A stretch of 64,000 bases of DNA from Nannocystis sp. (GTDB lineage Bacteria > Myxococcota_A > Polyangia > Nannocystales > Nannocystaceae). The stretch spans positions 4,669 through 68,668 of the forward strand of contig NZ_JADJNN010000008.1 of assembly GCF_016714285.1 (NCBI RefSeq), read 5' to 3'. The notes below the pieces were generated by a model. It searched no databases. It was not told where the DNA came from and worked only from the letters and a program-made list of their open reading frames with translations. Shown in pieces: positions 6,197 to 57,848 of this stretch. Position 1 is the stretch's first letter, and every line of letters starts with the position of its first letter. The translations under genes were made by a program, and so were the position numbers.

Positions 6197-6441
6197 GACG
6201 GCCTCCTTCTCGGCGGAGCGATGGATGAATGGACAGAGATAAAGCGCGCAGAGGGAGTTGAACCCTCGCTTCCTCCGTGGCAGGGAGGCGTGCGGCCACC
6301 AGCACCTTGCACGCAGATCGATGGATCGACGGGTGTGGCCGCGACGGGCCAATGCCGCGGCGAATCAGCGCCCACGGATATGTGGGTACTTGCGGAGCTG
6401 CGACGGCGGGCCGCGGTCCGACGGAGGGCCGATCGAGCGGG

Positions 6442-6853: not shown

Positions 6854-9199
6854 TCAGGGCGGCGCGATGCGGGCGCGGAGGATGTGGTCGCCGAGGGCGA
6901 GGGCGTCCAGGCGATCGGGATGACCGTGCTGGTCTGGGCGCAGGCGGCCGATCCAGGTGTAGCGGCCCTCGAGGTGCGGGGCGCGGGCGTGCATGAAGAA
7001 GAACTGGCTGCCGCCGGTGTCCTTGCCGGCGTCGGCGATGCCGACCGCGCCGCGATCGAAGGCGTGGTCGCCGGGCTCGCTCGGGAGCACGAAGCCGGGG
7101 CCGCCCCAGCCGTTGCCGTCGGGGTCGCCGCCCTGAAGCACGAAGCCCGGGACGTCGCGGTGGAAGCGGAGGCCGTCGTAGTAGCCGCGGCGGGTGAGGG
7201 CGACGATCTCGGCGACGGCCCAGGGCGCGGCGGTGGGGTCGAGGTCGATCTCGAGGTCGCCGACCTCGGTGCTGAGGATCCAGCGGATCGGGGCGCCGGG
7301 CAGGCTGCGCGGGTCGAGCGGCGGCGGGGGCAGTGCTGCGGCGGTGGCGATCGAGGCGGCGTTGCCCGGGCCCGGGTCGGGGGCGGTGGCGATCGCGGCG
7401 GGGCCCTGGCCCTGGCCCTGGCCGCGGAGCTGCTGCACGCAGGCGCGGGCGGCCTTGCGGACGGCGGGGCTGGCGTGGGCGCGGCTGGCCTCGCAGACGG
7501 GGAGACCGGCGGCGACACCGGTGGCCGCGAGGGTGGCGAGGAGGGTGCTGTGCAGCTCGGGCTCGCGGGCGGCGTGGGCGGTGGCGAGGGCGGCGAGGCG
7601 CTGCCACAGCGGATCGCTGGCGGCGAGAAGCGATGGCTTGGCGTGGGTCGGTGGCTTGTCGTGCGGTGCGGCGATCACATCGGCGGCCGATCCGACGACG
7701 CCGAGGACCGGGTCGGCGAGGGCGCGCAGCAGCCAGGCGTGGACGATCGTGGTGGTCGCGGGGTCGTGCCACAGCGGGCCGAGAGCGGCGACGGCGGCGA
7801 GGCGCAGCTGTGGATCGGTGGCGGTGAGGAGCGCGTCGAGCCGGGCGGCGCGCGCGGGCCAGGGGCCGCCGAAGCCGTGGATCAGCGGGCCGAGCTCGTG
7901 GGCCTCGCGCTCGCCGGGGCGCAGCAGCGGGCTCTGGCAGACGAGCGGCGGGCGCCAGCGCGGGTCGTGGGCGAGGCGCGCGGCGAGCTGGCAGTCGATG
8001 CGGGCGAGCAGGCGACGACGAGCTTCGCGGCGGGCGTCGTCGAGGTTGGCTGCGTTGGTGGGTGGGTTCGTGGGCGAGTTGTTGTTGGTCGCGGTGGGTG
8101 GGCTCGTTGGTGTGTTGTTGTTGGTCGTGGCGGGTGGGTTGATCGGCGAGTTGTTGGTGGTCGTGGTGGTGTTGCGATCGATCGCGGTGCGCAGCTGCTC
8201 GAGGGCGTGGCGCTCGCGGATCGAGGGGGCGGTGGTCTCGCTGGCGAGGCACGCGAGGGCGGCGTGGAGCTGGCGGGCGTGGGCGAGGCGCTGGGGCTCG
8301 TCCTGCGTGCGGTCGGCGATGCTGCTGCGGGCCCAGGCGAGGACGGCGAGGACGGCGGTCTGGCGATCGGGGGCGATGAGGGCGGCGAGGCGGCGCGGGT
8401 CGCTGGCGGCGGCGGGCAGCTCGCGGGTGAGGCAGGCTTGCAGCGGCGGTGTGGCGCTGCGGCGGACCAGGCCGGCGAGGGCGAGGCGCTGGAGCTCGCG
8501 GTCGCTGCTGCGGGTGTGGTCCCGCAGGAGGGCGAGGATCGACGGATCGGGGGGCGGCGTGTGCTCGTTGGCGAGGGCGTAGAGGGCGGCGTAGGTGAGC
8601 GCGGGGTCGCTGGCCAGGGCGAGGAGGTTGGCGCGGGTCGGGGCGTCGAGCGGGTGCTTGCGGCGACCGAGCACGCCGAGGGCGATCGCGGCGGTGCTGC
8701 GCAGGGCCGGGCTCGCGGTCGGGGCGAGGGCGTCGCGCAGGACGGGCAGAGATGCGGGGCCTCCGAGGCGGCCGAGAGCCTCGGCGATGGCGCGGCGCTC
8801 GTCGGCGTCGGCGCGCGGCCAGGCGGTGAGGAGGGCGGCGTCGAGGTCGGTGAGCTCGGTGTCGAGGAGGGCGGCGATGCCGAGCGCACGCGCGGCGTGC
8901 TCGCGTCGGCGAGGATCGTCGCCGCGGAGCAGGGTGAGCAGGGCGGCGATCGCCGGCGGGTCGCCGACGCGTGCGAGGGCGAGGATAACCGGGCCGGGAT
9001 CGGGGTCGCCGAGGCGAGCGATGAGGGGGGCGCTGTCGCGGAGCAGCTCGAGCTCGAAGAGGGGGGTCGCGGGGATCGTTGTCGTGGTTGGGGCGGGGCC
9101 GGGGGGCGCGGCGGGGACCTGCGGGGGCGCAGCGGGGACCTGCGGGGGCGCGCAGGCGAGCAGGCAGCTCAGGGTCGTGAGGGCGAGGGCCGGGCGCAT
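6854..9199 (-). CDS. HEAT/PBS-lyase repeat lipoprotein with C-terminal cyclophilin-type peptidyl-prolyl isomerase domain
   Basis: 781-aa ORF. Lipobox LSCLLAC at the N-terminus. Repeated ALG..GD..A...L helical repeats. C-terminal cyclophilin motifs (GYYDGLRFHRDVPGFVLQGGDP...GGSQFFF). Internal Asn/Thr/Pro-rich tandem repeat encoded by ~42-bp repeats at ~8040-8180. Confidence 0.85.
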   Translation of the reverse strand: MRPALALTTLSCLLACAPPQVPAAPPQVPAAPPGPAPTTTTIPATPLFELELLRDSAPLIARLGDPDPGPVILALARVGDPPAIAALLTLLRGDDPRRREHAARALGIAALLDTELTDLDAALLTAWPRADADERRAIAEALGRLGGPASLPVLRDALAPTASPALRSTAAIALGVLGRRKHPLDAPTRANLLALASDPALTYAALYALANEHTPPPDPSILALLRDHTRSSDRELQRLALAGLVRRSATPPLQACLTRELPAAASDPRRLAALIAPDRQTAVLAVLAWARSSIADRTQDEPQRLAHARQLHAALACLASETTAPSIRERHALEQLRTAIDRNTTTTTNNSPINPPATTNNNTPTSPPTATNNNSPTNPPTNAANLDDARREARRRLLARIDCQLAARLAHDPRWRPPLVCQSPLLRPGEREAHELGPLIHGFGGPWPARAARLDALLTATDPQLRLAAVAALGPLWHDPATTTIVHAWLLRALADPVLGVVGSAADVIAAPHDKPPTHAKPSLLAASDPLWQRLAALATAHAAREPELHSTLLATLAATGVAAGLPVCEASRAHASPAVRKAARACVQQLRGQGQGQGPAAIATAPDPGPGNAASIATAAALPPPPLDPRSLPGAPIRWILSTEVGDLEIDLDPTAAPWAVAEIVALTRRGYYDGLRFHRDVPGFVLQGGDPDGNGWGGPGFVLPSEPGDHAFDRGAVGIADAGKDTGGSQFFFMHARAPHLEGRYTWIGRLRPDQHGHPDRLDALALGDHILRARIAPP

Positions 9200-9367: not shown

Positions 9368-9901
9368 ATGGCGAGGTCGGTGCATATTCTGTCGTTGCTG
9401 GACGACAGCGACATCGAGTGGTTGGTGCAGGTCGGGCTGCGCCTGAGCGTGCCGCCGGTGGCTCCGCTGGTGGAGGAGGGGCTGCGCACGCCGTTCCTCT
9501 ACATCATTCTTTCGGGGGCCTTTCTCGTGACGCAGAGCGCGACGGGGGCGACGGAGCGGTCGCTGTCGGTGATCCAGCGCGGGGAGCTGGTCGGGGAGCT
9601 GTCGTATCTCGACGCGCGGCCGCCGTCGGCGACGGTGCGGGCGGCCCGGGCCTCGCAGGTGCTGGCGGTGGCGCGCTCGGAGGTCGCGCGCAGGCTGCAG
9701 ACGGACGTCGGGTTCGCGGCCCGCTTCTACCGGGCGCTGGGGATCACGGTGGCGATGCGGCTGCGGGCCCTGACGCGCGGCGAGCCGGAGGACGAGCCGG
9801 ACCTCGAGCAGCTCGGGCTGGTGACGGTGGACGAGCGGCGCTTCGAGGCGATCATGCGCCGGCTGGAGGGGCTCCCAGGCGACGCAGACGCAGCGAGTTG
9901 A
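9368..9901 (+). CDS. cyclic nucleotide-binding domain protein
   Basis: 177-aa ORF starting at ATG 9368. cNMP-binding fold pattern ([12 protein letters not shown]...[23 protein letters not shown]). High GC3. Confidence 0.7.
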
Positions 9902-12323
9902 GCACGACGGTGAGGCTGCTGAGGGCCATCGCCAGGGCGGCGAGGGCGGGGTGGAGCGCGCGCAGGAAGCCCGGGGCGGCGGCGATCGGGTAGAGGGCGC
10001 CGGCGGCCACCGGGATCAGGACGAGGTTGTAGATCGAGGCCCACAGCAGGTTCTGGCGGACCACGGCGAGGGTGCGGCGCGACAGCTCCAGGGCCTCGGG
10101 CAGGCCGCGGAGGTCGCTGCGCATGAGGGTGAGGTCGGCGGCGTGGATCGCGACCTCGGCGCCGCTGCCCATGGCGACGCCGAGGTCGGCCTGGGCCAGG
10201 GCGGGGCCGTCGTTGATGCCGTCGCCGACCATGCCGACCGGGCCGTCCCGCTGGAGCGTGACGATCGCGGCGGCCTTGTCGGCCGGGAGCACGCCGGCGA
10301 TCACGTCGGCGGCGGGGATGCCGGCCTGGGCGGCGATGGCGATGGCGACCTGGCGGTGGTCGCCGGTCAGCATGAGCACGCGCAGGCCGGCGCGGCGCAG
10401 GGTGGCGACGGCCTCGGCGGCCTCGGGGCGCAGGGCGTCGGCCAGGGCGAGCAGGCCGAGCAGGGCGCCGTCGCGGGCCAGCCAGACGAGGGTCTGCGGG
10501 GCCTGCAGGGCGGCGGCGGGGAGGGCGAGGAGGGCGGGTGTCGCTTGGGACAGGTGGGTGGCGGTGGCGGTGGATGTCCCGGCGGACAGGTCGGGTGTCG
10601 CTTGGGACAGGTGGGTGGCGGCTGTCCCGGGGGACAGGTTTGATGTCTCTTGGGACAGGTTGATCGTGGCGCTGGCGGTGGCTGTCCCGGCGGACAGGTC
10701 GGCGGCGAGGGCGGTGAGGGCGGTGGTGTCGACGTGGTTGCTGGTGAGCCAGCGTTCGCTGCCGATGAGGAGGTCGTGGCCGCCGACGCGGGTGCGCAGG
10801 CCGTGGCCGCCGACGGCGCGGAGGTTGTCGCTGGCGGGGAGTTCGAGGCCGGCGTCGCGGGCGGCGGTGACGATCGCGCGGGCGAGCGGGTGCTCGCTGC
10901 GCTGCTCGGCGGCGGCGGCGAGGCGGAGGAGCTCGCGCGGGTCGACGCCGGGGGCGGGCGCGAGGGCGCTGAGCGTGGGGCGGCCGCGGGTGAGGGTGCC
11001 GGTCTTGTCGAGGACGAGGGTGCGCAGGGCCTGGGCTCGCTCGAGCGCGGCCATGTTCTTGAACAGGACGCCGCGGCGGGCGGCGGCGCCGGTGCCGACG
11101 ACGATCGCGGTCGGGGTGGCGAGGCCGAGGGCGCAGGGGCAGGCGATCACGAGGACGGCGACGGCGCGCAGGAGGGCCGCGCCGGCGCCCTGGTCGGCGA
11201 GCAGCCACCACAGCGTGAAGGTGAGGCCGGCGAGGGCGAGGACGACGGGGACGAACACGGCGGCGACGCGGTCGACCAGGCGCTGCACGGGGGCCTTGCT
11301 GGCCTGGGCGGCGCGGACGAGGCGGACGATCTGGGCCAGGGCCGTGGCTGCGCCGACGCGGGTGGCCTCGATCTCGAGGGCGCCGTCGCCGTTGACGGTG
11401 GCGCCGGTGACGGGGTCGCCGGTGGTCTTGCCGACGGGGCGGCTCTCGCCGGTCAGCATGCTCTCGTCGACCTCGGAGGCGCCGCTGCGGACGACGCCGT
11501 CGACCGGGATCGCGGCGCCAGGGGCGACCAACACGGTGTCGCGGACCCGGACCTCTGCGGCGGGGATCTCGAGCTCGTGGCCGTCGCGGCGGACCCGGGC
11601 GGTGGCGGGGCGGAGCGCGAGCAGGGCCCGGATCGCGGCGCCGGCCTGGCCGCGGGCGCGGGTCTCGAGCAGGCGGCCGACGCCCACGAGGGTGATGATC
11701 GCGGCGGAGGTCTCGAAGTGGACGTGGTGGCCGAGAGCGTGGCTGCCGAGGGACTCGGCGACGACCACCGGGACGCTGGCGAGGAAGGCCACGCCGGCGC
11801 CGAGGCTGATCAGGACGTCCATGGTGGCGGCGCGGGCCTTGAGCGCGTGCCAGGCCCCGCGCAGGTGCGGCGCGCCGGTGTAGGCGAGGACCGGCAGGGC
11901 GAGCGCCAGCAGGAGCCACAGGAGCCACGGGGCGGCCGTCCAGGCGCCGAGCAGGTCGAAGTCGCGGCCCATACCGAGGACCATCAGCGGGGCGGTGCAG
12001 GCGATCCCGACGAGGACGCGGCGGCGCTGACTGGCGAGCTCGGCGGCGCGGGCCAGCAGCTCGGCATCGTCGCCGCCCTCGCTGCCCGCGATCACGCTGT
12101 AGCCGGCGGCCTCGACGGCGGCGACCAGCTCACCGCGAGTGACTGTGCCGGGGGTCGCCAGGTGCACGCGGGCGGTCTCACTGGCGAAGTTGACGGCGGC
12201 CGCGGCGACGCCGGGGACGCTGGTGAGCGCGCGTTCGACGGTGTTCGCACAGTTGGCGCAGCGCAGCCCGGCGATCGCCAGCTCGAACTCGGGGTCGTCG
12301 GCGGCGGGCACGGAGCCGAGCAT
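9852..12323 (-). CDS. heavy-metal-translocating P-type ATPase (CopA-like) with N-terminal HMA domain; carries an in-frame low-complexity insertion in the N-domain
   Basis: 823-aa ORF. CxxC metal-binding motif ([12 protein letters not shown]), CPC motif ([11 protein letters not shown]), DKTGTLT phosphorylation motif, [10 protein letters not shown] hinge. A 70-80 aa Ser/Thr/Ala-rich insertion (LSQET/LSAGT repeats) is encoded by the GGACAGGT repeat array at 10540-10720. Confidence 0.9.
10540..10720. repeat. intragenic array of GGGACAGGT / TGTCCCGGCGGACAGG repeat units inside the P-type ATPase gene
   Basis: Direct repeats of gtcgcttgggacaggtgggtggcgg (x2), tgtcccggcggacaggtcgg (x2) and related units read directly in sequence. 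Confidence 0.85.
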
Positions 12324-12403: not shown

Positions 12404-13219
12404 ATGCATCGCATTTCGGTCGCGGCCTTGTTGTTGTTCGCGTGCGGACCCTCGGGCGGCAAGGACCCGTCCTCGACGAGCGAGACCGGCGAGTCCGCGA
12501 CGGCGACGGGCGGGTCGACGACGGTGACGGGCGGGTCGACGACGATGACGCCGACGAGCGACGGGACCGGCGCGACGAGCGACGGGACCGGCGCGGCGAG
12601 CGAGGGGACTGGCGAGACCGCGGGGGTGGATTGCTCGCCGGTCGGGCTGGACGCGTGCCCGGTGACGCAGTGCATCGAGCGCTGGGCCTTCGAGTGCCCG
12701 GGCTGCGGTGTGGAGGTTAACCCGGTGACCTGCTTCGAGATCGATGTCGGCTGCGCCTACCCGCTGCAGAATTGTCCGCTGGCGACGCCCTGCGATCGGG
12801 TGTGGGGGATGGGCTACGACGCGATCGAGGCGTTCGAGAGCGAGGCGGCGGCGCTGTGCATGTTGACGGCGCTGCGCGACGGGACGCCCGGCAGGTTCGA
12901 GGTGCTGTGGGGCGAGATGGGCGACGAGGGCATCAACTACATGCAGGTGTACAGCGGGGGCAAGGGCACGGTGCTGATCGAGTGGGAGGTGGACTGTCAG
13001 GGCTGCCCGGAGTCGGGGGCGGTCGGTCGCTCGGGCCAGCTGACCCTTCAGCCAGGTAGCTACTTCGACGACTGTCTGGCGGCGCCGGACACCGCGTCGC
13101 TGATCCAGTGCGTGTTTGGCTTCGTCGACTTCGCCGCCGGTCAGCCGCCGCCGGACGCCTACGCGCCGCCGTTCACGACCGGCGAGTGCGCGTCGCTGGA
13201 TCTGAGCTGCCCGACCTGA
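12404..13219 (+). CDS. hypothetical Cys-rich lipoprotein
   Basis: ATG 12404 gives MHRISVAALLLFACGPSGG (lipobox LFAC). Ser/Thr/Gly-rich linker, then a Cys-rich globular domain. The ORF track allows an earlier start at 12344. Confidence 0.6.
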   Translation: MHRISVAALLLFACGPSGGKDPSSTSETGESATATGGSTTVTGGSTTMTPTSDGTGATSDGTGAASEGTGETAGVDCSPVGLDACPVTQCIERWAFECPGCGVEVNPVTCFEIDVGCAYPLQNCPLATPCDRVWGMGYDAIEAFESEAAALCMLTALRDGTPGRFEVLWGEMGDEGINYMQVYSGGKGTVLIEWEVDCQGCPESGAVGRSGQLTLQPGSYFDDCLAAPDTASLIQCVFGFVDFAAGQPPPDAYAPPFTTGECASLDLSCPT

Positions 13220-13236: not shown

Positions 13237-13956
13237 TCAGGTGCAGTAGTTGCCGTTCATGTTGTTGGGCAGGGCGAGGCCGGTGCAGGCCATGCCGATC
13301 GGGCAGTCGGCGACGCCGGTGCACTTGAGGGCGCACACCTTCTGCGCCGGGTTCAGGCTGATCGTCAGGCACTCCTGGACGGCGGGGGCCTTGGGCGCGG
13401 GGCCGCAGTCGGCGACCTGGTTGCACAGCAGGGTGCAGTAGCCGTCGATGACCTTCATCGTCATGGCGTCGGTGATCGTGAAGCAGCCGTCGGTGAGGTT
13501 GACGTTGCAGGGGGTGTTGTCGAGGCAGGACTCGTAGAGGCCGTCGGCGGGCTGCGGGTCCTTCGGGTCGGGTGGGTCGCCGGTGGTGGTGCTGGGGTCG
13601 ACGTTGGTGGTGCTGGGGTCGACGCCGGTGGTGGTGCTGGGGTCGACGTTGGTGGTGCTGGGGTCGACGCCGGTGGTGGTGCTGGGGTCGACGCCGGTGG
13701 TGGTGACGGGGTCGCTGCTGGTCTCGCCGGGGCCCTGGGTGGTCGCGCTGACCTCACCGGTGGTGACGCCGCCGGTCTCGCCGCCGGTGGCGCTGGGGTC
13801 GGAGCTGGCCTGGGTGGGCTGGCTGGCGCTGATGCTGCTGGAGAAGCCGGAGACGTTGGACTTGTCGTCGCCGCAGGCGCTGGCCAGCGAGAGCAGGGAG
13901 ACGAGCGCGACGGAGCCTCGCAGGCGGTGAGCGGACGATAAGTAGTGCATTGTCAA
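13237..13956 (-). CDS. hypothetical lipoprotein with Thr-rich VDPSTTTG tandem repeats and C-terminal Cys-rich domain
   Basis: 239-aa ORF. Signal peptide with lipobox LASAC. Six copies of the (V/G)DPSTT(T)G repeat encoded by the 13583-13700 tandem repeats. C-terminal domain with 10 Cys. Confidence 0.65.
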   Translation of the reverse strand: MTMHYLSSAHRLRGSVALVSLLSLASACGDDKSNVSGFSSSISASQPTQASSDPSATGGETGGVTTGEVSATTQGPGETSSDPVTTTGVDPSTTTGVDPSTTNVDPSTTTGVDPSTTNVDPSTTTGDPPDPKDPQPADGLYESCLDNTPCNVNLTDGCFTITDAMTMKVIDGYCTLLCNQVADCGPAPKAPAVQECLTISLNPAQKVCALKCTGVADCPIGMACTGLALPNNMNGNYCT

Positions 13957-19174: not shown

Positions 19175-19232
19175 GAGCCCGGGTGTACGCCGGGCGGCCG
19201 CGGGCTGTCCACGGGGCCGACGAAGCAGGACG

Positions 19233-19646
19233 TCAGGGGCACACGCAGCGGACCTTGTCGCCGCCGTTCGGGACCTTGCCGGTCTGGCCGCAGTCGAGGT
19301 CGTAGCGGGCGCCGGTACAGCGTTGGGCGCCCTTCCCGTCGGGGCTGCAGGCGGAGTACATCTCGACGCAGCCGTCGCCGAGGCCGGGGCGCGGGTGGAG
19401 GTCGCGGTGGCCGGCGAGCGGAGGGGGCGGGGCGGCGGGCGGTGGAGTTGGTGGGGTTTCGGCGAGCGGGGGTGGGGGTGTCGGAGGCGTCGGTGGGGTT
19501 TCGGCGATTGGGGGTGGTGGTGTCGGAGGCGTCGGTGGGGTGGGTGCGGTCGGGGTTGTCGGTGGCGTCGGGGCGGCGGGCTTGGTCGGCTCGGTCGGGG
19601 CGGTGCAGGCGAGGAGCAGGGCGCCGAGGAGGAGGAGGCGGTGCAT
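19233..19646 (-). CDS. Pro/Thr-rich lipoprotein with C-terminal Cys-rich domain
   Basis: Start ATG 19646 (MHRLLLLGALLLAC, lipobox LLAC). PTPPTPP repeats encoded by ~45-bp tandem repeats at 19440-19560. C-terminal domain with 6 Cys. The longer upstream ORF to 19991 is low-GC3 and was rejected. Confidence 0.55.
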   Translation of the reverse strand: MHRLLLLGALLLACTAPTEPTKPAAPTPPTTPTAPTPPTPPTPPPPIAETPPTPPTPPPPLAETPPTPPPAAPPPPLAGHRDLHPRPGLGDGCVEMYSACSPDGKGAQRCTGARYDLDCGQTGKVPNGGDKVRCVCP

Positions 19647-19649
19647 GGT

Positions 19650-20564
19650 GGGACGATAACCTGGGTGGGAGCGCGGGCGGTGGGGCACGGGCCGGGGTGG
19701 GGCCGGCCCTCCGGCGAGCGACGCCTCCGCTAAAGGCAAGGCGGTCGGCGTCGCCGAGAGCCGGCCCCACCCCGGCCCTGAATGGGGTGACGTCGCTGCG
19801 CGGTATGTAGCAGCGAATGCGACGGGTTGCACTCGATATGTCGCATTGCTGTGAGCCTCGAAGCGCTCACCGTTCAATGCACTCAAATGGGTCCGGGGCA
19901 GTCCTGCGGAGCGTCCGTGTCGGGCGCGCACATTGCTGTCGGGCCCATGTCGCCGCAACAATCGTCGTGGCTGCAGAGGATGCAACTCCATTCGAAGCAG
20001 GCCGTGATGCGTCCAATGTGAATGAGTTGTGGTCGCCGTGTGGCACCTTTCGTTCCTGTCCGAAGAGGCAGGTTGCGAGTCTCAGGCCGGGGCGGGCCTC
20101 GGCGACGCCGTGATGCATGCAATGTGAATGAGTTGTGGTCGCCGTGTGGCACCTTTCGTTCCTGTCCGAAGAGGCAGGTTACGAGTCTCAGGGCCGGGGC
20201 GGGTCCGGCCTCGGCGACGCCGATCGTACCGTCCTTTAGCGGAGGCTTCGCTTGCCGGGGGGCCGACGGGGGGGTCGACCGAGTCAAGGGGCGCCGTGGA
20301 GAACGAAGTTCTCCAAAGGCGAACCCGCCCTGTCTGAGGGCGAACCCCCCGTCGGACATCCGGCTTCTCGAGGATACGCGCGCGCCCGCCGGACCCGCCC
20401 CGGTCCGTGCCACGATACTCGCGGAGTCCTGCTGTGATAGCGAGGATACTCGCGGAGTCCTGCTGTGATAGCCCGGTCCGTGCCACGATACTCGCGGAGT
20501 CCTGCTGTGATAGGCCGGTCCGTGCCTTGATATTCGCGGACCTGCGATAGCGAGGGGTCGGCCT
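19650..20564. repeat. repeat-rich noncoding region: two ~105-bp direct repeats (20005-20109, 20110-20221), 3-4 tandem ~42/27-bp units (20399-20555), flanking inverted 14-bp repeat (cctccgctaaagg / cctttagcggagg at ~19727 and ~20243)
   Basis: Read directly. Locally lower GC, with no ORF showing credible codon bias. Confidence 0.8.
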
Positions 20565-25972: not shown

Positions 25973-26839
25973 GTGCGCCGCCTCGCCTGTCTCTGGCTCG
26001 CCTCCTCGCTGATCGCGGTGGGCGGGCCGGCGCGCCCGCTGCACGCGGCGCCGGTCAGCGAGCGCGCGGCCGATGTGCCGCTCGCGGTCGAGGGACCTGC
26101 GCCAAAGGACAGGTCGGGAGAGGCTGGCGCGGAGGACAGGTCGGCTGGCTCCGGGGACAGGTCGGGGTCAGCTGGCCCGGAGGACAGGTCGGGAGAGGCT
26201 GGCCCGGAGGACAGGTCGGGGTCGGCTGGCCCGGAGGACAGGTCGGCTGGCTCTGGGGACAGGTCGACGCCGCGGTCGGCGGCCGAGGGGATGCCCGCGG
26301 CGCCGCGGGTGCCGGCGCCGACGGCTGCGATCAAGGATGGGGGTCCAGAGCTGGTCACGGTGGCGGTCGGGCTCGGGCCCTCGGCGCCGGGCTCGAAGGC
26401 GGAGACGGCGGTGGTCGACGCGCTCGAGCGCGCCGCCCGGGCCTCGCAGGCGCCGCCGACGCTGGTTCGCCGCCTGCGGGCCGGGGCGGGCGAGGGGCGG
26501 GCGATCTGCCGCGAGCGTCGCGACGACCTGGTGCTGCTGCTCGAGTACATGCCCGATCGACCCGAGCCGGTGTTGGTGCCCCGGGACTGCCGCCTCGACC
26601 GTGAGCTGGCGCTCCGGGGGAAGGAGGCCGCAGGTGAGCCGGCCCTCATCGGCGTACTGTGGGAGGAACATCGGGCGCTCGTCCGCGGCGGGGCCCGCGA
26701 GCGCAAGGTGAGGATCAGCCGCAAGGTGAAGACGGGCCTCATCGCTGGCGGGGCGATCGTGGTCGTCGGGCTGGCGATCGTGCTGGTTGTGGTCAACAGC
26801 TTGCGCCGCGAGACGGTCGTGCTCACAGTGGGGCCATGA
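25973..26839 (+). CDS. secreted/membrane-anchored protein with (G/A)E(A/D)GPEDRSG tandem repeats
   Basis: GTG 25973. Signal peptide LACLWLASSLIAVG. Seven ~8-9-aa repeats encoded by the GAGGACAGGTCGG tandem array at 26095-26270. C-terminal TM helix. Stop overlaps the next ATG (ATGA). Confidence 0.6.
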   Translation: MRRLACLWLASSLIAVGGPARPLHAAPVSERAADVPLAVEGPAPKDRSGEAGAEDRSAGSGDRSGSAGPEDRSGEAGPEDRSGSAGPEDRSAGSGDRSTPRSAAEGMPAAPRVPAPTAAIKDGGPELVTVAVGLGPSAPGSKAETAVVDALERAARASQAPPTLVRRLRAGAGEGRAICRERRDDLVLLLEYMPDRPEPVLVPRDCRLDRELALRGKEAAGEPALIGVLWEEHRALVRGGARERKVRISRKVKTGLIAGGAIVVVGLAIVLVVVNSLRRETVVLTVGP

Positions 26840-30010: not shown

Positions 30011-31768
30011 TCAGACGCGGGCGTCGGTCTCGAACAGGCGCTCGAGCTCGTCGGCGGACTGCTTTGCGTGGGCGATCAGGGCCTGCTCGTTGTCGCGGAG
30101 GGTGAATTGCTCGGCGAGGACGCGCTCGTCCCAGCGGCGGAAGGCGAGGGTGAGCTCGTGGGCGTCGGCGCGGCCGAGCTCGGTGAGGGCCTGCTCGGCG
30201 AGCTCGAGGCTGGACACGAGTGTCTCGCGGATCACCGTGTCGGCGCCGGCGGCGACGAGCGCGTGGTTGTGCTGGCGGTTGCGGCTGCGGGCGAGGATCC
30301 GCAGCTGGGGGAAGTGCTGGCGCGCGTGCTGGACGATGTGGAGCGCGGCCTCGGTGTCGTCGACGGCGACGATCAGGAGGCGGGCCTTGTGGGCGCCGGC
30401 GGCGTGGAGCAGGTCGAGGCGGGCGGCGTCGCCGTAGAAGATCTTGCTGCCGTAGCGGCGCACGAAGTCGATCTGGGTCGGGCTGACCTCGAGCGCCGTG
30501 AAGCCGACGCGGGCCATGCGGAGCACGCGGGCGACGATCTGACCGAAGCGGCCGAAGCCGGCGATGATGACCCCGTGGGCCTCGTCGATGGTGTCGAAGG
30601 GGCGCGGATCTGCGGCTGTCTCTCGGGACAGACGGTCGCGCAGCAGGAAGAGCAGCGGGGTGGTGACCATCGACAGGGTGACGACCAGGATCAGCATGTC
30701 GGCGGTCGGGCGGTCGAACACGCCGGCCGCGATCGCGGCGCTGCAGACGACGAAGGCGAACTCACCGCCCTGGGACAGGGCGATAGCGAGGTCGAGGGCG
30801 CCGTGGCGCGGCAGCTTGAAGACCAGGCGGCCGAGCACGAGCACGGCGAGCAGCTTGACGGCGACCAGCGCGAGGACCAGGCCGGCGAGGGTGAGCGGCT
30901 GCTCGGCGAGCAGGCCGAGGCGGGCCGACATGCCGACGGCGACGAAGAAGAGGCCGAGCAGGAGGCCCTTGAAGGGGTCGATGTCGGCCTCTAGCTGGTG
31001 GCGGTAGGGCGAGTCGGCGAGCAGCACGCCGGCCAGGAAGGCGCCGAGGGCCATCGACAGGCCGACCTGTTCGACGAGGATGGCGGTGGCGAGGACGATG
31101 AGGAGGGCGAGCGCGGCGGAGAGCTCGCGGATGCGGGTGCCGGCGACGACGCGGAACAGCGGGCCGAGCAGGTAGCGGCCGGCGAACACGAGGCTGACGA
31201 TGACGCCGAGGGCGAGGCCGACCTGGGCGAGGCCGCTGCGGCCGGCGGCCTCGGCGGCGCGGGCCGTGCCGAGCAGGGGGAGGACGGCGAGGAGCGGGCT
31301 GGCGGCGACGTCCTGGAACAGGAGGATGCCGAACGCGGCGTGGCCGTGGGGCGTGGAGAGGCTGTGGCGGTCGGCGAGGATCTGCAGGACGATCGCGGTG
31401 GACGAGAGGGCGAGGGCGAGGCCGGTGACGATCGCGGCGCTCGGGGGCAGGCCGAGCAGCCAGACGATCGGCGCGAGCAGGACGGCGCTGACGGCCACCT
31501 GCAGGCCGCCGTACTCGAACACCTGGGCGCGCAGCTGCCACAGGCGGGCGGGCTGCAGCTCGAGGCCGACGAGGAACATGAGCAGGACGACGCCGAGCTC
31601 GGCGAAGTGGAGGGTGGAGTCGACCTCGTGGATGAAGCCGAAGCCGGAGGGGCCGATCGCCACGCCCGCGGCGAGGTAGCCGAGCACGGCGCCGAGGCCG
31701 AGGCGCTTGAACACCGGGACCGCGACGACGGCAGCGGCGAGGAAGATCGTGGCCTGGGCGAGCTGCAT
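30011..31768 (-). CDS. CPA2-family K+/H+ antiporter (KefB/KefC-like) with C-terminal RCK/TrkA-N domain
   Basis: ATG 31768 (MQLAQATIFLAAAVVAVPVFKRLGLGAVLGYLAAGV...). 12-13 TM helices, then a Rossmann RCK domain (GVIIAGFGRFGQIVARVL). The upstream extension in the ORF track lies in a tandem duplication. Confidence 0.9.
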   Translation of the reverse strand: MQLAQATIFLAAAVVAVPVFKRLGLGAVLGYLAAGVAIGPSGFGFIHEVDSTLHFAELGVVLLMFLVGLELQPARLWQLRAQVFEYGGLQVAVSAVLLAPIVWLLGLPPSAAIVTGLALALSSTAIVLQILADRHSLSTPHGHAAFGILLFQDVAASPLLAVLPLLGTARAAEAAGRSGLAQVGLALGVIVSLVFAGRYLLGPLFRVVAGTRIRELSAALALLIVLATAILVEQVGLSMALGAFLAGVLLADSPYRHQLEADIDPFKGLLLGLFFVAVGMSARLGLLAEQPLTLAGLVLALVAVKLLAVLVLGRLVFKLPRHGALDLAIALSQGGEFAFVVCSAAIAAGVFDRPTADMLILVVTLSMVTTPLLFLLRDRLSRETAADPRPFDTIDEAHGVIIAGFGRFGQIVARVLRMARVGFTALEVSPTQIDFVRRYGSKIFYGDAARLDLLHAAGAHKARLLIVAVDDTEAALHIVQHARQHFPQLRILARSRNRQHNHALVAAGADTVIRETLVSSLELAEQALTELGRADAHELTLAFRRWDERVLAEQFTLRDNEQALIAHAKQSADELERLFETDARV

Positions 31769-31870
31769 CCCGGCGGTGATGGTTACGCGAGCTCGCGGGC
31801 GGCGGCGAGGAAGATCGTGGCCTGGGCGAGCTGCATCCCGGCGGTGGTGATTACGCGAGCTCGGGGCGGG
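31737..31870. repeat. tandem duplication (~65 bp x2) of the ribosome-binding site, start codon and first ~10 codons of the kefB-like gene
   Basis: GAGGAAGATCGTGGCCTGGGCGAGCTGCATCCCGGCGGTG(A/G)TG(G/A)TTACGCGAGCTCG at ~31737-31800 and ~31808-31870. Confidence 0.85.
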
Positions 31871-32954
31871 CGCCGAGGACGGGGAGGCGGCGGACCGGCG
31901 CACGGGGGGAAGCGGCCGCTGCGGCGAGCTCGGGGCGCGGGGCGCCGCAGACGGAGCCCTCGAGGCCGAGCTGGGCGAGCATGTCGAGGTCGTCCTGGAC
32001 CGAGCGGTTGGGGGTGGTGAGGAAGTCGCCGATCATCATGCCGGAGGCGCCGGCGCTGAAGATGAGCGGCTGGAGCTGACCGAGGTGCTGGCGACCGGCG
32101 GCGATGAAGATGTTCTGGCGCGGGAGGGCGAGGCGGAAGCAGGCGATGATGCGCAGCATCTCGAGCGGCTGCAGCGGCTCGGAGCGGGCCAGGCGGGTGC
32201 CGTCGACGCTGACGAGGAAGTTGATCGGGACCTCGTCGACGTCGAGGGCGCGCAGGTCCATGGCCAGCTCGGCGCGGTGCTCGGGGCGCTCGCCCATGCC
32301 CATGATGCCGCCGACGCAGGTGCGCAGGCCGAGCTCCCTGGCGTGGCGGATGGTGGCGATGCGGTCGTCGTAGCTGTGGGTGGTGACGACCTCGCCGAAG
32401 TAGCCGCGGCCGGTCTCGAGGTTGTGGTTGAACTCGGTCATGCCGGCGTCCTTGAGCCGCTGCAGGCCGGCCTTGCTGACGAAGCCGAGCGAGGCGTGGG
32501 CCTCGGTGAAGCCGGCCTCACGCACGGCGCGGATGCCCTCGACCATGTGCTCGAGCGCGCGGGAGCCGTCTTCGTAGCCGCGGGTGGCGGTGACCAGGCC
32601 GAGCGCGCTGGCCCCCTGGGCCTGGGCGCGCAGGCTGGCGCTGACCATCTGATCGTGCGTGAGGAATTTTTCGGCGCTGACGCCAGTGTCGAAGTGCTTC
32701 GATTGGGCACAGAAGCCGCAGTCCTCGGGGCAGCCGCCCTGCTTGGCGTTGACGATCGAGCAGAGGTGGACGTGGTTGCCGAAGCGCCCGCGGCGGACGC
32801 GGTCGGCGGCGGCGATGAGCTCCCAGGTGTCGTGCTCACCGGCGAGGTAGCGGGTCAGGCTGGCAGCGTCGAGCGCGTCGAGCTCGCCAGCGAGGACGCG
32901 ATCGGCGATCGCGTGCGGGGCGGGGAGATCGAGGGGCCGCGCTTCATGCTGCAT
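31851..32954 (-). CDS. bioB: biotin synthase (radical SAM)
   Basis: CPEDCGFCAQ (CxxxCxxC) radical-SAM motif and YNHNLET motif. The 3' end runs into the duplicated kefB start region, so the last ~30 codons are uncertain. Confidence 0.9.
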   Translation of the reverse strand: MQHEARPLDLPAPHAIADRVLAGELDALDAASLTRYLAGEHDTWELIAAADRVRRGRFGNHVHLCSIVNAKQGGCPEDCGFCAQSKHFDTGVSAEKFLTHDQMVSASLRAQAQGASALGLVTATRGYEDGSRALEHMVEGIRAVREAGFTEAHASLGFVSKAGLQRLKDAGMTEFNHNLETGRGYFGEVVTTHSYDDRIATIRHARELGLRTCVGGIMGMGERPEHRAELAMDLRALDVDEVPINFLVSVDGTRLARSEPLQPLEMLRIIACFRLALPRQNIFIAAGRQHLGQLQPLIFSAGASGMMIGDFLTTPNRSVQDDLDMLAQLGLEGSVCGAPRPELAAAAASPRAPVRRLPVLGARPELA

Positions 32955-46124: not shown

Positions 46125-48041
46125 TCACGCATCCTCCGCGGGGGCCTCGTTGGCGGCGGAGCTGTCCTCCGGGACAGCCGGACGCGTGCTGTCCTCCGGG
46201 ACAGCCGCGGACGCGTGCTCGGCGGAGCTGTCCTCCGGGACAGCCGCGGACGCGTGCTCGGCGGAGCTGTCCTCCGGGACAGCCGCGGACGCGTGCTCGG
46301 CGGAGCTGTCCTCCGGGACAGCCGCGCGCGCGCGCTCGACGACGCCGCGCTCCCACAGCTGCTCGTCGATCGCGCGCATGAGGGCCGCGGTGCTGCGGCG
46401 CTCGTTGGCGCTGATGAAGTAGGTGTGGCGGTCGGCGTCGGCGCGGCGGTGGTTGAGCTCGTCGGGGCCCAGGCGGTCGATCTTGTTGTAGACCCACAGG
46501 CGGGGCACGGCGCCGGCACCGATCTCGCCGAGGATCGCCTCGACGGTGGCGCGCTGCTGGTCCTGGTCGGGGTCGCTGGCGTCGACGACGACGAGCAGGA
46601 GGTCGGCCTCGGCGACCTCCTCGAGGGTGGCGGAGAAGGCCTGGACGAGCGCGGGGGGGAGGTCGCGGATGAAGCCGACGGTGTCGAGGAGGACGACCTC
46701 GTAGTCCTTGGGGAAGCGGATCCTGCGGACGCTGGGGTCGAGGGTGGCGAACAGCTTGTCCTCGGCGACGACGGCGCTGTCGGTGACGGTGTTGAGCAGG
46801 CTGCTCTTGCCGGCGTTGGTGTAGCCGACGATCGCGACCACGGGCACGCCGGTGCGCCGACGCAGGGCCCGACGCTGGTCGCGGCGCTGCTTGAGCGCGA
46901 GCAGGCGGCGCTCGAGGTCGTGGATGCGCTCCTTGGCGCGGCGGCGGTCGATCTCGAGTTTGGTCTCGCCGGGGCCGCGACCACCGATGCCGCCGGCGAG
47001 CCGCGACATGGCGGTGCCGTGGCCGATCATCCGCGGCAGGAGGTAGCGCAGCTGGGCCAGCTCGACCTGCAGCTTGCCGTCGGCCGAGGTGGCGTGCTGG
47101 GCGAAGATGTCGAGGATGAGGGTGGTGCGGTCGATGACCTTGAGGTCGGTGCGCTCGCCGATCTCGCGGGCCTGCGAGGGGGTGAGGTCGGGGTCGCAGA
47201 TCAGGAGCTCGACGTCCTGGGCGAGGGCCCGCACGAGCACGTCGCGCAGCTTGCCCTGGCCGAAGAAGGTGCGCGGGTCGGGGCCGGGGCGGCGCTGGGT
47301 GGCGAGGTCGACTAAGTGGAGGCCGTCGGTGCGGCACAGCTCGCGCAGCTCCTGCTCGCGGGCGTGCAGCTCGGGGCCCTCGCCCTGGTGGATCATGAGG
47401 GCCATGGCGCGGGTGCCCTGCGACTCGGCGCGCGCGCCCGCGGTGGCGGCGACGAGGCCGGCCTCGAGGTCGCGGATGAAGCCGAGGAAGTCGGAGGGCA
47501 TGTCCGCGGCGGGCCGCATGCCGGTGGTGTGGCCGGGGTCGTCGTCGTCGCGGGCGAGCACGCCGAGCGGGACGCGCGGGAAGCCGCGCACGACGAAGAT
47601 GTCCTTTGAGCCAGGTTGTGGCGGGGCCAGGCTGGCGAGGTCGATCTGGACGCCGGCGGGGCCGGTGTGGATCGCGGCGAGGAGGTCGAGGCGCAGCTTG
47701 GCGAGGTCGGCGAGCTCCTCGCGGGTCGGCGGGTCGGGGACCAGGTGGGTGAGGACCAGCCGGACGCCGCGCAGGCGGCCGCCCTGGCCGCGCACGCGGG
47801 TGAACTCCGGGAGGGCGAGGCTGTGGGCGTCGCCGAGGATGACGCGCTGCACGCGGCCGCGGCGGTCGATGAAGAGGCCGAGCTGGCGGTTGAGCTGGTG
47901 CGAGAGCTCGAGCAGGTCGCGCGCGAGCACGGCCGAGATGACGCTCGTCGGCGGGACCTGGCGCGCGCCGAGCCGCTGCAGCGCGCGGGCCTGGCTGCTC
48001 TTGAGGTTCGCCGTGTCGCCGTGGACGATCGGGTCGCTCAC
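46125..48041 (-). CDS. hflX: GTPase HflX with N-terminal extension and C-terminal AAVPEDSSAEHAS tandem-repeat tail
   Basis: GTG 48041 overlaps the stop of the upstream gene (GTGA). HflX N-domain and G-domain motifs (GYTNAGKSSLLN, DTVGF, NKID). Five C-terminal 13-aa repeats encoded by 39-bp tandem repeats at 46160-46326. Confidence 0.9.
   Translation of the reverse strand: MSDPIVHGDTANLKSSQARALQRLGARQVPPTSVISAVLARDLLELSHQLNRQLGLFIDRRGRVQRVILGDAHSLALPEFTRVRGQGGRLRGVRLVLTHLVPDPPTREELADLAKLRLDLLAAIHTGPAGVQIDLASLAPPQPGSKDIFVVRGFPRVPLGVLARDDDDPGHTTGMRPAADMPSDFLGFIRDLEAGLVAATAGARAESQGTRAMALMIHQGEGPELHAREQELRELCRTDGLHLVDLATQRRPGPDPRTFFGQGKLRDVLVRALAQDVELLICDPDLTPSQAREIGERTDLKVIDRTTLILDIFAQHATSADGKLQVELAQLRYLLPRMIGHGTAMSRLAGGIGGRGPGETKLEIDRRRAKERIHDLERRLLALKQRRDQRRALRRRTGVPVVAIVGYTNAGKSSLLNTVTDSAVVAEDKLFATLDPSVRRIRFPKDYEVVLLDTVGFIRDLPPALVQAFSATLEEVAEADLLLVVVDASDPDQDQQRATVEAILGEIGAGAVPRLWVYNKIDRLGPDELNHRRADADRHTYFISANERRSTAALMRAIDEQLWERGVVERARAAVPEDSSAEHASAAVPEDSSAEHASAAVPEDSSAEHASAAVPEDSTRPAVPEDSSAANEAPAEDA
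46160..46326. repeat. five tandem ~39-bp repeats each containing the perfect palindrome GCTGTCC-TCCG-GGACAGC, inside the 3' end of hflX
   Basis: Read directly (gagctgtcctccgggacagccgcggacgcgtgctcggcg x5). Confidence 0.9.
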
Positions 48042-54953: not shown

Positions 54954-55017
54954 CAGCCCGGCGTTCGCGGGCTCGCGGCGGGAGAAAAAAGCGACGCTCG
55001 CCGGTTGATTCGCGCGC

Positions 55018-55289
<272 letters not shown>

Positions 55290-55305
<16 letters not shown>

Positions 55306-55370
55306 GGCTGTCCGAGGGGACAGGTTGCGGCCGGCGTACTTGATGTGAGGCTGTCCGAGCGGACAGGTCA
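55290..55370. repeat. two direct copies of TGATGTGAGGCTGTCCGAG(G/C)GGACAGGT, each with a CTGTCC-N4-GGACAG palindrome, between convergent genes whose stop codons lie in or next to the copies
   Basis: Read directly. Candidate bidirectional terminator or repeat element. Confidence 0.8.
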
Positions 55371-56270: not shown

Positions 56271-56315
56271 ACCGTGTTCACCGTGGGGCCGCGGTGAGCG
56301 ATGCTGCGCCCGTGA

Positions 56316-57698: not shown

Positions 57699-57848
57699 GG
57701 CGCGGGGGACAGGTGCGAGGAGACAGGTGCGAAGGGACAGGTTGGAAGGGACAGGTGGGATGGCCGCGGGGACAGGTGCGAAGGGACAGGTGGGGATGGC
57801 CGAAGGGACAGGTGGGAGGGGACCGGTGGGGATGGCCGAAGGGACAGC
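57699..57848. repeat. intergenic tandem array of eight degenerate 14-22-bp units built on GGGACAGGTG (…GGACAGGTGCGAAG / GGACAGGTTGGAAG / GGACAGGTGGGGATGGCCGAAG…)
   Basis: Read directly between the two M16 peptidase genes. All copies are on the + strand. Confidence 0.9.

Follow-up and report, generated by a model that had tools for sequence, protein, structure and literature searches.

Why does a gene for a copper pump carry a tandem repeat inside its ATP-binding domain, and does that repeat belong to the protein or to the DNA? We address this question for copA on a 64,000-nucleotide stretch of Nannocystis sp. DNA (the window), where a preliminary description had noted that the N-domain of a CopA-like P-type ATPase contains a motif-bearing minisatellite. 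The features discussed below are collected in Table 1. Pfam assigns HMA (residues 15-75), E1-E2_ATPase and Hydrolase domains to the copA product, and a HMMER alignment matches it to A. fulgidus CopA 3j09 with E = 1.5e-157. Inspection of a 39-sequence alignment reveals invariant DKTGT (439-443), TGE (291-293) and GDGIND (GDGxND, 700-705) motifs, an invariant CxxC (C22, C25) and an invariant N-domain HP (H478, P479). The CPC (395-397), Y765-N766 and MxxSS (M799, S802-S803) signatures are likewise invariant and align to CopA 3j09. The AF2 model (mean pLDDT 79) has a normal CopA fold apart from residues 546-610, and Foldseek returns 7r0g as the best match (target-normalised TM 0.80), with 4bbj at E = 8e-45. 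Motifs, copper-site signature, HMA domain and predicted fold are those of a P1B-1 (Cu+) CopA-type pump, and all of its catalytic and copper-binding motifs are intact despite the array. A protein that is 100% identical (P0001; NCBI, Nannocystis sp.) starts 4 codons later and counts 819 aa.

Table 1. Positions in the window of copA, its repeat units and the related arrays.
Feature	Position	Strand	Description
copA ORF	9852-12323	-	complete CopA-type (P1B-1) copper-exporting P-type ATPase, 823 aa counted from first ATG
Repeat array proper	10536-10703	-	168 bp; residues 541-596 (ADLSAGT...HLSQATP)
Unit 1	10539-10555	+	TGTCGCTTGGGACAGGT; half-palindrome TGTC/GACA; minus-strand reading HLSQAT
Unit 2	10575-10591	+	TGTCCCGGCGGACAGGT; hairpin TGTCC/GGACA; minus-strand reading DLSAGT
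Unit 3	10596-10612	+	TGTCGCTTGGGACAGGT; minus-strand reading HLSQAT
Unit 4	10623-10639	+	TGTCCCGGGGGACAGGT; 7-bp stem CTGTCCC/GGGACAG; minus-strand reading NLSPGT
Unit 5	10644-10660	+	TGTCTCTTGGGACAGGT; minus-strand reading NLSQET
Unit 6	10683-10699	+	TGTCCCGGCGGACAGGT; minus-strand reading DLSAGT
Remainder of lineage-specific loop	10497-10535	-	residues 597-609, ahead of conserved strand TLVWLARDG (alignment)
Sister array in ORF 25973-26839	26106-26266	+	7 copies of GGACAGGTCGG; partner arms CTGGCC
Sister array in HflX GTPase gene 46125-48062	46154-46338	-	5 copies of CTGTCCTCCGGGACAGC, period 39; C-terminal tail
Sister array, intergenic	57707-57847	+	at least 6 copies of GGGACAGGTG, spacing 14-28 nt; two minus-strand M16 peptidase genes around
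Repeat pair	55308-55368	+	two copies of tgatgtgaggCTGTCCGAGnGGACAGGT between convergent genes, each directly after a stop codon

Read directly from this assembly, the array comprises six units of the form TGTC(C/G/T)C-N3/4-GGACAGGT, and both unit types quoted in the preliminary description are present. Tandem Repeats Finder places it at 10531-10702, with a period of 48, 3.1 copies, 75% matches and a score of 183, and a repeat search finds direct repeats of 49-56 nt across 10509-10716. Translation from the minus strand yields six [D/N/H]LSx[G/E/A]T units with Ala/Thr/Ser spacers between them, in frame and without a stop. That is to say, the units stand head to tail and keep the reading frame, as in a coding minisatellite or VNTR. 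The Tandem Repeats Finder score, the six units and the CopA domains and motifs together bear out the description of a minisatellite within the N-domain of a CopA-like ATPase, and its translation as LS-type repeats in an unbroken minus-strand frame is confirmed.

The array lies between DKTGT and GDGIND, as had been described. The HMMER alignment to CopA 3j09 breaks here: query residue 526 pairs with CopA 492 and query residue 607 with CopA 513, so that 80 query residues stand where CopA has 20. Between fixed alignment anchors, the query has 111 residues versus 49 in the non-Nannocystis CopA of four outgroup proteins, none of which has a D[LM]S unit. The ~60 residues that are extra relative to other CopA fall between the last N-domain helix and the strand returning to the P-domain, an insertion point that the orthologue alignment fixes. 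Inspection of the AF2 model reveals a helix at 534-545, no regular structure from there through 610 and a strand that restarts at 611, with pLDDT <50 for residues 558-593. The model thus indicates that the repeat forms a disordered surface loop of the ATP-binding N-domain, predicted to make no contact with the nucleotide pocket, which agrees with the earlier suggestion of a surface loop.

To place the loop in the lineage, 34 close orthologues (58-92% identity) were aligned; those whose source is named are Nannocystis. Between 1 and 9 D[LM]S units occur at the same CopA site in 33 of the 34. The orthologue without a unit by this count is P0029, and P0028 has a single unit surrounded by a different repeat. 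The statement that conserved P-type ATPases normally have no such segment holds for CopA proteins outside the lineage, with 49 versus 111 residues; nearly all of the close orthologues carry it. Copy number differs between strains, as the preliminary description had proposed to check. Outside the array P0019 and P0021 share 99.9% identity, and inside it they differ by 32 aa; P0012 and P0016, also 99.9% identical outside, differ by 18 aa, which are length changes deduced from sequence comparison in a set where many sequences are metagenome assemblies and repeat copy number can be mis-assembled. In pairs that are 96-99% identical the arrays differ by 15-61 aa, except for P0003 and P0004, where lengths are equal. 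Such copy-number polymorphism among closely related genomes is that of a VNTR. The same CopA site holds arrays of this kind in the isolate records of N. punicea and N. pusilla, both multi-megabase, and in a draft of N. exedens. When genome contigs were scanned with the ATPase, the CopA genes recovered were all distant (at most 52% identity), and no close genome was among them.

These comparisons indicate that the site of the array is conserved while its content is hypervariable, and that the array is neither a recent or private insertion nor a strain-specific one. The repeat segment is not a folded native domain, one of the cases that had been named as fatal to the minisatellite description. 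Inspection of the codons also dismissed the idea that the arrays of N. pusilla, N. exedens and N. punicea are inverted and read in another phase, as after re-colonisation of the site. In both subclades the core GAC-(C/A)TG-TCC is read in one and the same phase, as D-(L/M)-S, and only the partner arm switches side. Because this phase is common to both clades, common descent suffices to account for the array at the CopA site.

At the DNA level, the pattern xAC CTG TCC NNN GNG ACA holds for all units of the window as well as those of two further lineages (L081, L083), and the codons that make it up are unusual for the gene. Rare codons (ACA, GGG, CAA and TCC) are enriched in the array. Threonine is encoded by ACA in 6/12 insert codons versus 1/45 in the rest of copA, glycine by GGG in 3/3 versus 3/70 and glutamine by CAA in 3/3 versus 0/15, with a GC3 of 0.82 in the insert versus 0.97 in remaining copA. 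The array folds on itself to excess, more so as DNA (z = -4.7, with 0/200 shuffles folding as well) than as RNA (z = -2.3). Rare codons at synonymous positions preserve the palindrome, and judging from these codons the constraint would act on DNA.

The repeat is abundant beyond copA. The sequence CTGTCCCGGCGGACAGGT, with at most 3 mismatches, occurs 20 times in the 64-kb window versus 0.18 expected, a number reached by 0/100 shuffles, and GGACAGGT is found in 33 copies over both strands versus 2.1 expected under an order-2 Markov model. The window also holds 18 TGTCC-N(2-8)-GGACA palindromes, and loci from other Nannocystis species show enrichment of the motif as well. The consensus is a core GGACA(G/T)GTC(C) whose partner arm, TGTC(C/T)C or GGGACA, lies at a distance of 3-4 nt, and such a short imperfect palindrome in many copies is of the REP type. 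The same DNA core reads EDRS, VPEDSS, WPEGQV and CPxGQ in other genes. On the sense strand of ORF 25973-26839, the sister array reads EDRSGEAGP or EDRSGSAGP; the product of this ORF matches no Pfam family and, on visual inspection, begins with a hydrophobic, signal-like segment at its N-terminal end and has another hydrophobic segment at its C-terminal end, making it a putative membrane-anchored protein. In the HflX gene, whose domains are identified by Pfam, the tail array is read in another phase than copA, as AAVPEDSSAEHAS (VPEDSS). A metagenome scan identified at least 120 stretches with the repeat, on high-GC contigs, and among the matches listed all three phases appear to be used by arrays, others of which sit between coding sequences. 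In one locus, L106, a single 2201-aa ORF contains units in all three phases. An Rfam search of the window returned only two tRNAs and no match at any array, and the papers searched contained no account of these repeats in Nannocystis or other myxobacteria. The repeat family is dispersed over the window, the Nannocystis loci examined and high-GC metagenomic contigs, both inside and between genes. This goes beyond the preliminary description, in that the motif matters at the DNA level, as a short palindrome dispersed in other phases and in intergenic DNA.

We consider it probable that the copA array is a hairpin-forming minisatellite belonging to a REP-like family of repeats found across the genus, and that slippage or recombination changes its size within a tolerated disordered loop. 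Units would be gained and lost by replication slippage or unequal recombination, which we propose because the units are direct repeats, each able to form a hairpin. Since the phase used in copA contains no stops and the encoded peptide is hydrophilic and rich in Ser/Thr/Ala/Pro/Gly, the array would be expressed as a disordered surface loop. Selection may then act solely against variants with a broken frame or a disturbed fold, and the outcome would be a variable-number repeat that differs between near-identical strains. The array looks like a tolerated passenger rather than a new protein domain, and we infer that the loop is a passenger at the DNA level with no role in pumping. Some constraint at the protein level may remain, because the D[LM]S core persists at the CopA site in orthologues as distant as 58% identity, with both subclades reading it in one phase, and because the LS/MS phase looks commoner than one third among coding single copies.

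In a different reading, D[LM]Sx[GE]T is a selected short linear motif or flexible tether, such as a Ser/Thr phosphorylation or glycosylation site or a regulatory linker on the N-domain, and the palindrome in the DNA would arise as a by-product. Consistent with this are the D[LM]S core, present in 33 of 34 close orthologues and read in one phase by both subclades, the many coding single copies that read xLS or xMS and the SP or TP dipeptides in several units. However, synonymous positions are fixed on rare, palindrome-preserving codons, and the same DNA gives four other peptides elsewhere and also lies between genes. Arrays range from 1 to 9 units, with different numbers in strains that are otherwise 99.9% identical, and the predicted structure is disordered and makes no contact with the nucleotide pocket. 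We regard a protein-level module as rather unlikely on this balance. In a further reading, the units are mobile: REP/REPIN- or MITE-like non-autonomous elements would be placed here and elsewhere by a dedicated RAYT or IS200/IS605-like transposase, and the array would grow by repeated insertion instead of slippage. A short palindrome dispersed at high copy through many unrelated genes, with hairpins directly after the stops of convergent genes, is expected of such elements, and intragenic REP clusters encoding 43-82 aa are among the cases given for Thauera and Rickettsia conorii in PMC3733652. The array units are direct repeats rather than inverted pairs, though, their 5' flank is CGAC and not the GTAG/CGTC tags of known REP superfamilies, and a single site is conserved across the genus with changes that are in-place gains and losses of units. 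Repeated insertion is thus quite improbable as the source of the copA array. A Pfam search of the ATPase and eight other window ORFs found no transposase among these nine.

Strand bias raises the further prospect that GGACAGGT is a functional chromosomal site, either a polar KOPS/Chi-like motif or an operator, whose arrays pile up where they are tolerated. Thirty of the 33 window copies fall on the plus strand, G-rich over its entire length, and 77/100 independent clusters in the loci examined lie on the locally G-rich strand; the palindrome may also bear a loose resemblance to MerR/CueR-type dyads. The motif itself, however, has 5 G and 1 C, and we calculate that a GC skew of 0.1-0.2 is enough by itself to give a 2-5:1 bias, as seen. 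Loci with weak skew are balanced (N. punicea 7/5, N. pusilla 5/4, N. exedens 6/3), and tandem arrays in coding regions are unlike the organisation of KOPS, Chi or operators. KOPS/Chi-like polarity (30:3 and 77:23) was dropped on the ground that composition alone accounts for it, and a MerR/CueR-like operator (ACCT..CC/GG..AGGT dyad) was set aside given the spread of the motif over unrelated genes and in arrays. A chromosomal site is very unlikely overall. An assembly artefact, in which a metagenome-style assembly collapsed or expanded repeats and so produced the array or its copy number, has slighter prospects still and can be considered hardly credible. The 168-bp array is close to a typical short-read length, and P0001, the only identical protein on record, may stem from the same assembly; against this, arrays stand at the same position in the independent assemblies of N. 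punicea, N. pusilla and N. exedens, the frame is intact and the flanks align undisturbed.

With a tolerated, hairpin-forming minisatellite as the preferred account, several consequences follow. In the CopA N-domain, the disordered repeat of this loop ranges from ~15 to ~140 residues while no catalytic motif is lost, which makes the loop a natural permissive site, for example for tag insertion. The arrays could also serve as ready VNTR markers for strain typing in Nannocystis. A broader idea, which we offer tentatively as one that may well prove wrong, is that Nannocystis and related uncultured high-GC bacteria carry undescribed, self-propagating hairpin repeats of ~15-20 nt that seed and expand arrays in ORFs, in three phases, and between genes, so that many proteins, housekeeping enzymes like CopA and HflX among them, would acquire disordered loops and tails that vary between strains. 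If so, the family would be kept by a dedicated DNA-level mechanism, be it a recombination hotspot or an enzyme specific for hairpins (a transposase or nuclease), and would constitute a bacterial counterpart of eukaryotic motif-bearing minisatellites. Already in the lineage studied here, a short palindromic repeat usually considered extragenic is a common source of in-frame, fast-changing protein segments that are read in several phases. The arrays offer a tractable system for studying the spread and persistence of hairpin repeats, the ways in which proteins accommodate them and the question of whether useful variation arises.

Long loops in this domain have a precedent in the human copper ATPase ATP7B (the Wilson disease protein), whose nucleotide-binding domain reportedly tolerates a long disordered loop in NMR structure work. 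Both are P1B copper ATPases with a long N-domain loop, yet that of ATP7B lies one beta-hairpin earlier, before the GNREWL segment, has no tandem repeat and is unrelated in sequence.

Among repeats, the Rickettsia palindromic elements (RPE) resemble those of Nannocystis in being palindromic and both intergenic and translated in frame within ORFs. RPE measure ~100-150 bp, whereas the Nannocystis unit is ~15-20 nt (17 nt in copA) and forms direct tandem arrays of strain-variable copy number. As described in PMC3733652, RPE are palindromic DNA found between genes and, in frame, within ORFs whose products are apparently still functional; they are single insertions there, RPE-1 being a longer palindromic insertion. 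The copA array shares the in-frame translation and is not a single palindromic insertion. The hosts differ as well, RPE being found in a reduced intracellular genome and the present repeats in a free-living myxobacterial genus with genome records of 12-13 Mb.

REP sequences, in the account of PMC3733652, are short GC-rich hairpins, mostly near gene ends with some within ORFs, and GTAG/CGTC 5' tags define their superfamilies. The flanks seen here read CGAC-CTGTCC (CGAC/GTCG), equivalent to GGACAGGTCG, and thus lack these tags, and the repeats are not known to be associated with a RAYT gene. Extragenic inverted pairs are not the arrangement either: the largest arrays lie in coding sequences (copA, HflX and ORF 25973-26839), with one orientation per array. 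The intragenic REP clusters of Thauera and R. conorii, at 43-82 aa (PMC3733652), include inserts in the same size range as that of copA, although the Nannocystis array is conserved in site across the genus and hypervariable in length.

Coding minisatellites and VNTRs of bacterial proteins offer a further parallel, with intragenic tandem repeats that keep the frame and vary in copy number. Bacterial coding VNTRs usually occur in surface or contingency proteins, while the Nannocystis hosts include the catalytic domain of a housekeeping ion pump and the HflX GTPase. Palindromic amphipathic repeat coding elements (PARCELs) are described as palindromic at the DNA level too (PMC2996958). What sets the Nannocystis repeats apart from both coding VNTRs and PARCELs is that their core is used in all three reading phases.

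Inspection of the ATPase gene that carries the repeat array points to an intact pump. Its product is 100% identical to a public protein labelled heavy metal translocating P-type ATPase (Nannocystis sp.) and matches the solved Archaeoglobus CopA structure (E = 1.5e-157). Every signature residue of the CxxC, TGE, CPC, DKTGT, HP, GDGxND, YN and MxxSS motifs is invariant in the alignment, and nothing in the sequence suggests a pseudogene. The 3' end of the gene overlaps that of a convergent gene by 50 nt (9852-9901). Tandem Repeats Finder places the array at 10531-10702 (period 48, 3.1 copies, score 183), a repeat search returns direct repeats of 49-56 nt, and direct reading of the sequence resolves six units of the form TGTC(C/G/T)C-N3/4-GGACAGGT. 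The coding strand of every unit reads xAC CTG TCC NNN GNG ACA, that is [D/N/H]-L-S-x-[G/E/A]-T, and the 56 translated residues keep the frame without a stop, in agreement with the preliminary description of an in-frame minisatellite inside the ATPase ORF.

The segment follows the N-domain HP dipeptide and glycine-rich strands and precedes the strand returning to the P-domain, well within the interval between DKTGT and GDGxND to which it had been assigned. The HMMER alignment to CopA is broken at this site (query 15-526 to chain 6-492; query 607-820 to chain 513-717), with 80 query residues set against 20 in CopA. The segment is missing from four CopA proteins of other lineages, as had been proposed for conserved P-type ATPases; they have 49 residues between the GSERWL and TLVWxARDG anchors, versus 111 in the query. 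An AlphaFold2 model of the whole ATPase (39 orthologues as input, mean pLDDT 79) adopts the CopA fold (Foldseek target-normalised TM-score 0.80 to 7r0g), with a predicted helix at 534-545, no regular structure thereafter up to a strand at 611, and pLDDT below 50 over residues 558-593.

Comparison with the 34 closest orthologues (58-92% identical), whose sources include N. pusilla, N. exedens, N. punicea, N. bainbridge and, for many, metagenomic contigs and assemblies, reveals a repeat segment at the same site in nearly all, with D[LM]S-x-x-T-like units such as DLSPGT, DMSPGT, NLSHGT and DMSESAG. A simple count of D[LM]S units, the peptide core encoded by one repeat unit, gives 1 to 9 per protein in 33 of the 34 and none at the array site of P0029. 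The 62% identical orthologue P0028 holds mainly a different repeat at the N-domain site (~3-4 copies of SPSPVSPTLPREPADTIGG) and a single D[LM]S unit, so the site seems to tolerate the expansion of repeats other than those of the D[LM]S family. Anchor-to-anchor length ranges from 46 to 171 residues among the orthologues, and no other part of the protein varies nearly as much as the array. The predicted copy-number variation is borne out by pairs that are 99.9% identical outside the array and differ inside it by 32 residues (P0019/P0021) or 18 residues (P0012/P0016); pairs 96-99% identical differ by 15-61 residues, with the exception of P0003/P0004, whose arrays are of equal length. The alignment thus portrays the array site as lineage-wide and hypervariable, and as neither a private insertion nor a conserved folded domain. 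Within N. punicea copA, a lone ACCTGTCC core read as DLSAET (L082 10254, ~residue 85) falls in the stretch linking the HMA domain to the first transmembrane helix, a second unit-bearing site in the same protein family.

Codon usage of the insert is atypical for the ATPase gene. Thr is encoded by ACA in 6/12 cases (1/45 in the rest of the gene), Gly by GGG in 3/3 (3/70), Gln by CAA in 3/3 (0/15) and Ser by TCC in 7/9 (4/28), and GC3 is 0.82 versus 0.97. Exactly these rare codons complete the palindrome CTGTCC-N3/4-GGGACAG, and they are found again in the arrays of L081 and L083, two other lineages with 75-82% identity to the query protein. The unit of the N. pusilla/N. exedens/N. punicea clade is GTGTCTC-N3-GGACATGTCC, read V-S-x-D-M-S; its core GAC-(C/A)TG-TCC shares the reading phase of the window lineage, whereas the partner arm lies 5' of the core rather than 3'. 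The array is more self-complementary than shuffled sequence as single-stranded DNA (z = -4.7, 0/200 shuffles fold as well), and as mRNA its folding z is -2.3. These patterns indicate that the constraint on the copA array acts on DNA.

The window has ~74% G+C and positive GC skew throughout, and related repeats are dispersed across it. GGACAGGT occurs 33 times versus 2.1 expected, CTGTCCCGGCGGACAGGT with at most 3 mismatches 20 times versus 0.18, and GGACATGT, a related palindrome core, 18 times (both strands) versus 0.6. Copies of GGACAGGT in the window are split 30:3 between the strands, and over all loci compared the strand ratio is 77:23. A polar KOPS/Chi-like role is unsupported, since by our own calculation the bias is of the size expected from GC skew for a 5-G/1-C word, and strand counts are balanced in weak-skew loci.

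Positions in the window of the copA array units, associated genes, related repeats and further tandem arrays
Feature	Position	Strand or location	Details
ATPase ORF	9852-12323	minus	823 aa; HMA, E1-E2_ATPase, HAD-hydrolase domains
Cyclic-nucleotide-binding-domain protein gene	9368-9901	plus	convergent with ATPase gene
copA array unit 1	10539-10555		
copA array unit 2	10575-10591		
copA array unit 3	10596-10612		
copA array unit 4	10623-10639		
copA array unit 5	10644-10660		
copA array unit 6	10683-10699		
Sister array, seven GGACAGGTCGG units	26106-26266	plus	sense strand of ORF 25973-26839; EDRSGEAGP / EDRSGSAGP
Sister array, CTGTCCTCCGGGACAGC	46154-46338	minus	39-nt period; HflX-type GTPase gene 46125-48062
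Sister array, GGGACAGGTG units	57707-57847	intergenic	spacing 14-28 nt; between two tandem M16-family peptidase genes
Two hairpins CTGTCCGAGnGGACAGGT	55308-55368		one right after each stop codon of convergent genes
Palindrome GACATGTC, 10 in window	22736, 27907, 27971, 35710, 40919, 50330, 52329, 52555, 62660, 63868		
Further Tandem Repeats Finder arrays, examples	12473-12618, 13578-13714, 31730-31879, 48257-48564		

Sister arrays occupy several contexts. By eye, the 288-aa product of ORF 25973-26839 starts with a hydrophobic, signal-like segment and has another hydrophobic segment at its C-terminal end; it has no Pfam match. The HflX-type GTPase (GTP-bdg_N, GTP-bdg_M and MMR_HSR1 domains) carries its array as a C-terminal tail, with four to five AAVPEDSSAEHAS units right before the stop codon, and the intergenic array stops shortly before the ATG start codon of the downstream M16 gene, whose product begins with a lipoprotein-like signal, MSRALVLTLAAATLAC. 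The GACATGTC palindrome, often GGACATGTCC and frequently with CTGGCC/GGCCAG flanks and near gene boundaries, appears to be the symmetric form of the GGACAGGTC core. At 55240-55368, a run of ~14 Asp codons closes the small ORF 55009-55305, and two 43-nt repeats, each with hairpin CTGTCCGAGnGGACAGGT, span the gap to the convergent gene 55368-56315. Rfam identifies two tRNA genes, 1872-1945 and 6243-6314 (minus strand), the former sharing an inter-coding gap with hairpin units 1543-1560 and 1657-1672.

The octamers are also enriched in N. punicea, N. pusilla and N. exedens loci. A metagenome scan returned at least 120 stretches with two adjacent CTGTCCNNNGGGACA units, and most of the 80 loci analysed have 70-78% G+C. 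With frames called by codon-position GC rather than from curated genes, some of the metagenomic arrays among those listed read LSxGT, PVPxDS or CPxGQ, some lie between CDSs, and the remainder are not placeable. A single 2201-aa ORF at locus L106 carries units in all three phases, as WPEGQV, LSEGTG and VPEDRS/GPGDMS.

The genome is minisatellite-rich, at least in the window, where Tandem Repeats Finder reports ~20 separate arrays in 64 kb at a score of at least 90, several of them overlapping mapped coding ORFs. The gene for a HEAT-repeat plus cyclophilin protein (6854-9199, minus) contains an unrelated 36-nt-period array at 8056-8184 that encodes a stretch rich in Asn, Thr and Pro (TTTTTNNSPINPPATTNNNTPTSPPTATNNNSPTNPPTN); its product has 781 aa, versus 695 aa for that of the gene at the equivalent position in L081. 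Codon periodicity is weak and G+C somewhat lower at 19200-20550, a region in which 106 nt are duplicated in tandem (20001-20203, 95% match) and repeats of 31/42 nt carry TGTGATAG (20414-20540). Among octamers seen at least 6 times in the window, TGTGATAG has the top observed/expected ratio.

Given the observed anatomy and comparative pattern of the copA array, its best-supported reading is as a hairpin-forming minisatellite of a REP-like repeat family. The array would occupy DNA coding for a permissive loop, which we infer to be dispensable, and its length would be changed by slippage or unequal recombination, with an intact frame and fold as the sole filters of selection on it. The D[LM]S peptide may have a role in the protein, as its core is persistent at the copA site and its phase looks over-used among coding single copies; however, rare codons fixed in the units, the use of other reading phases and copies of the core between genes argue for a secondary role of the peptide motif. 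For the repeat family as a whole, spread by a transposase is possible, although the array units are direct repeats and lack the GTAG and CGTC tags that mark known REPs.

Our literature search returned no account of these repeats from any myxobacterium, Nannocystis included. The closest known cases to this proposed hairpin-forming minisatellite are the Rickettsia palindromic elements, which are translated in frame; the intragenic REP clusters of Thauera and R. conorii, which encode 43-82 residues (PMC3733652); PARCELs, which are palindromic coding repeats (PMC2996958); and ordinary coding VNTRs. In contrast to these, the Nannocystis hairpin unit is very short, its units stand in direct tandem arrays, the repeat uses all three reading phases, and a site in a housekeeping pump is occupied genus-wide and variable between strains.
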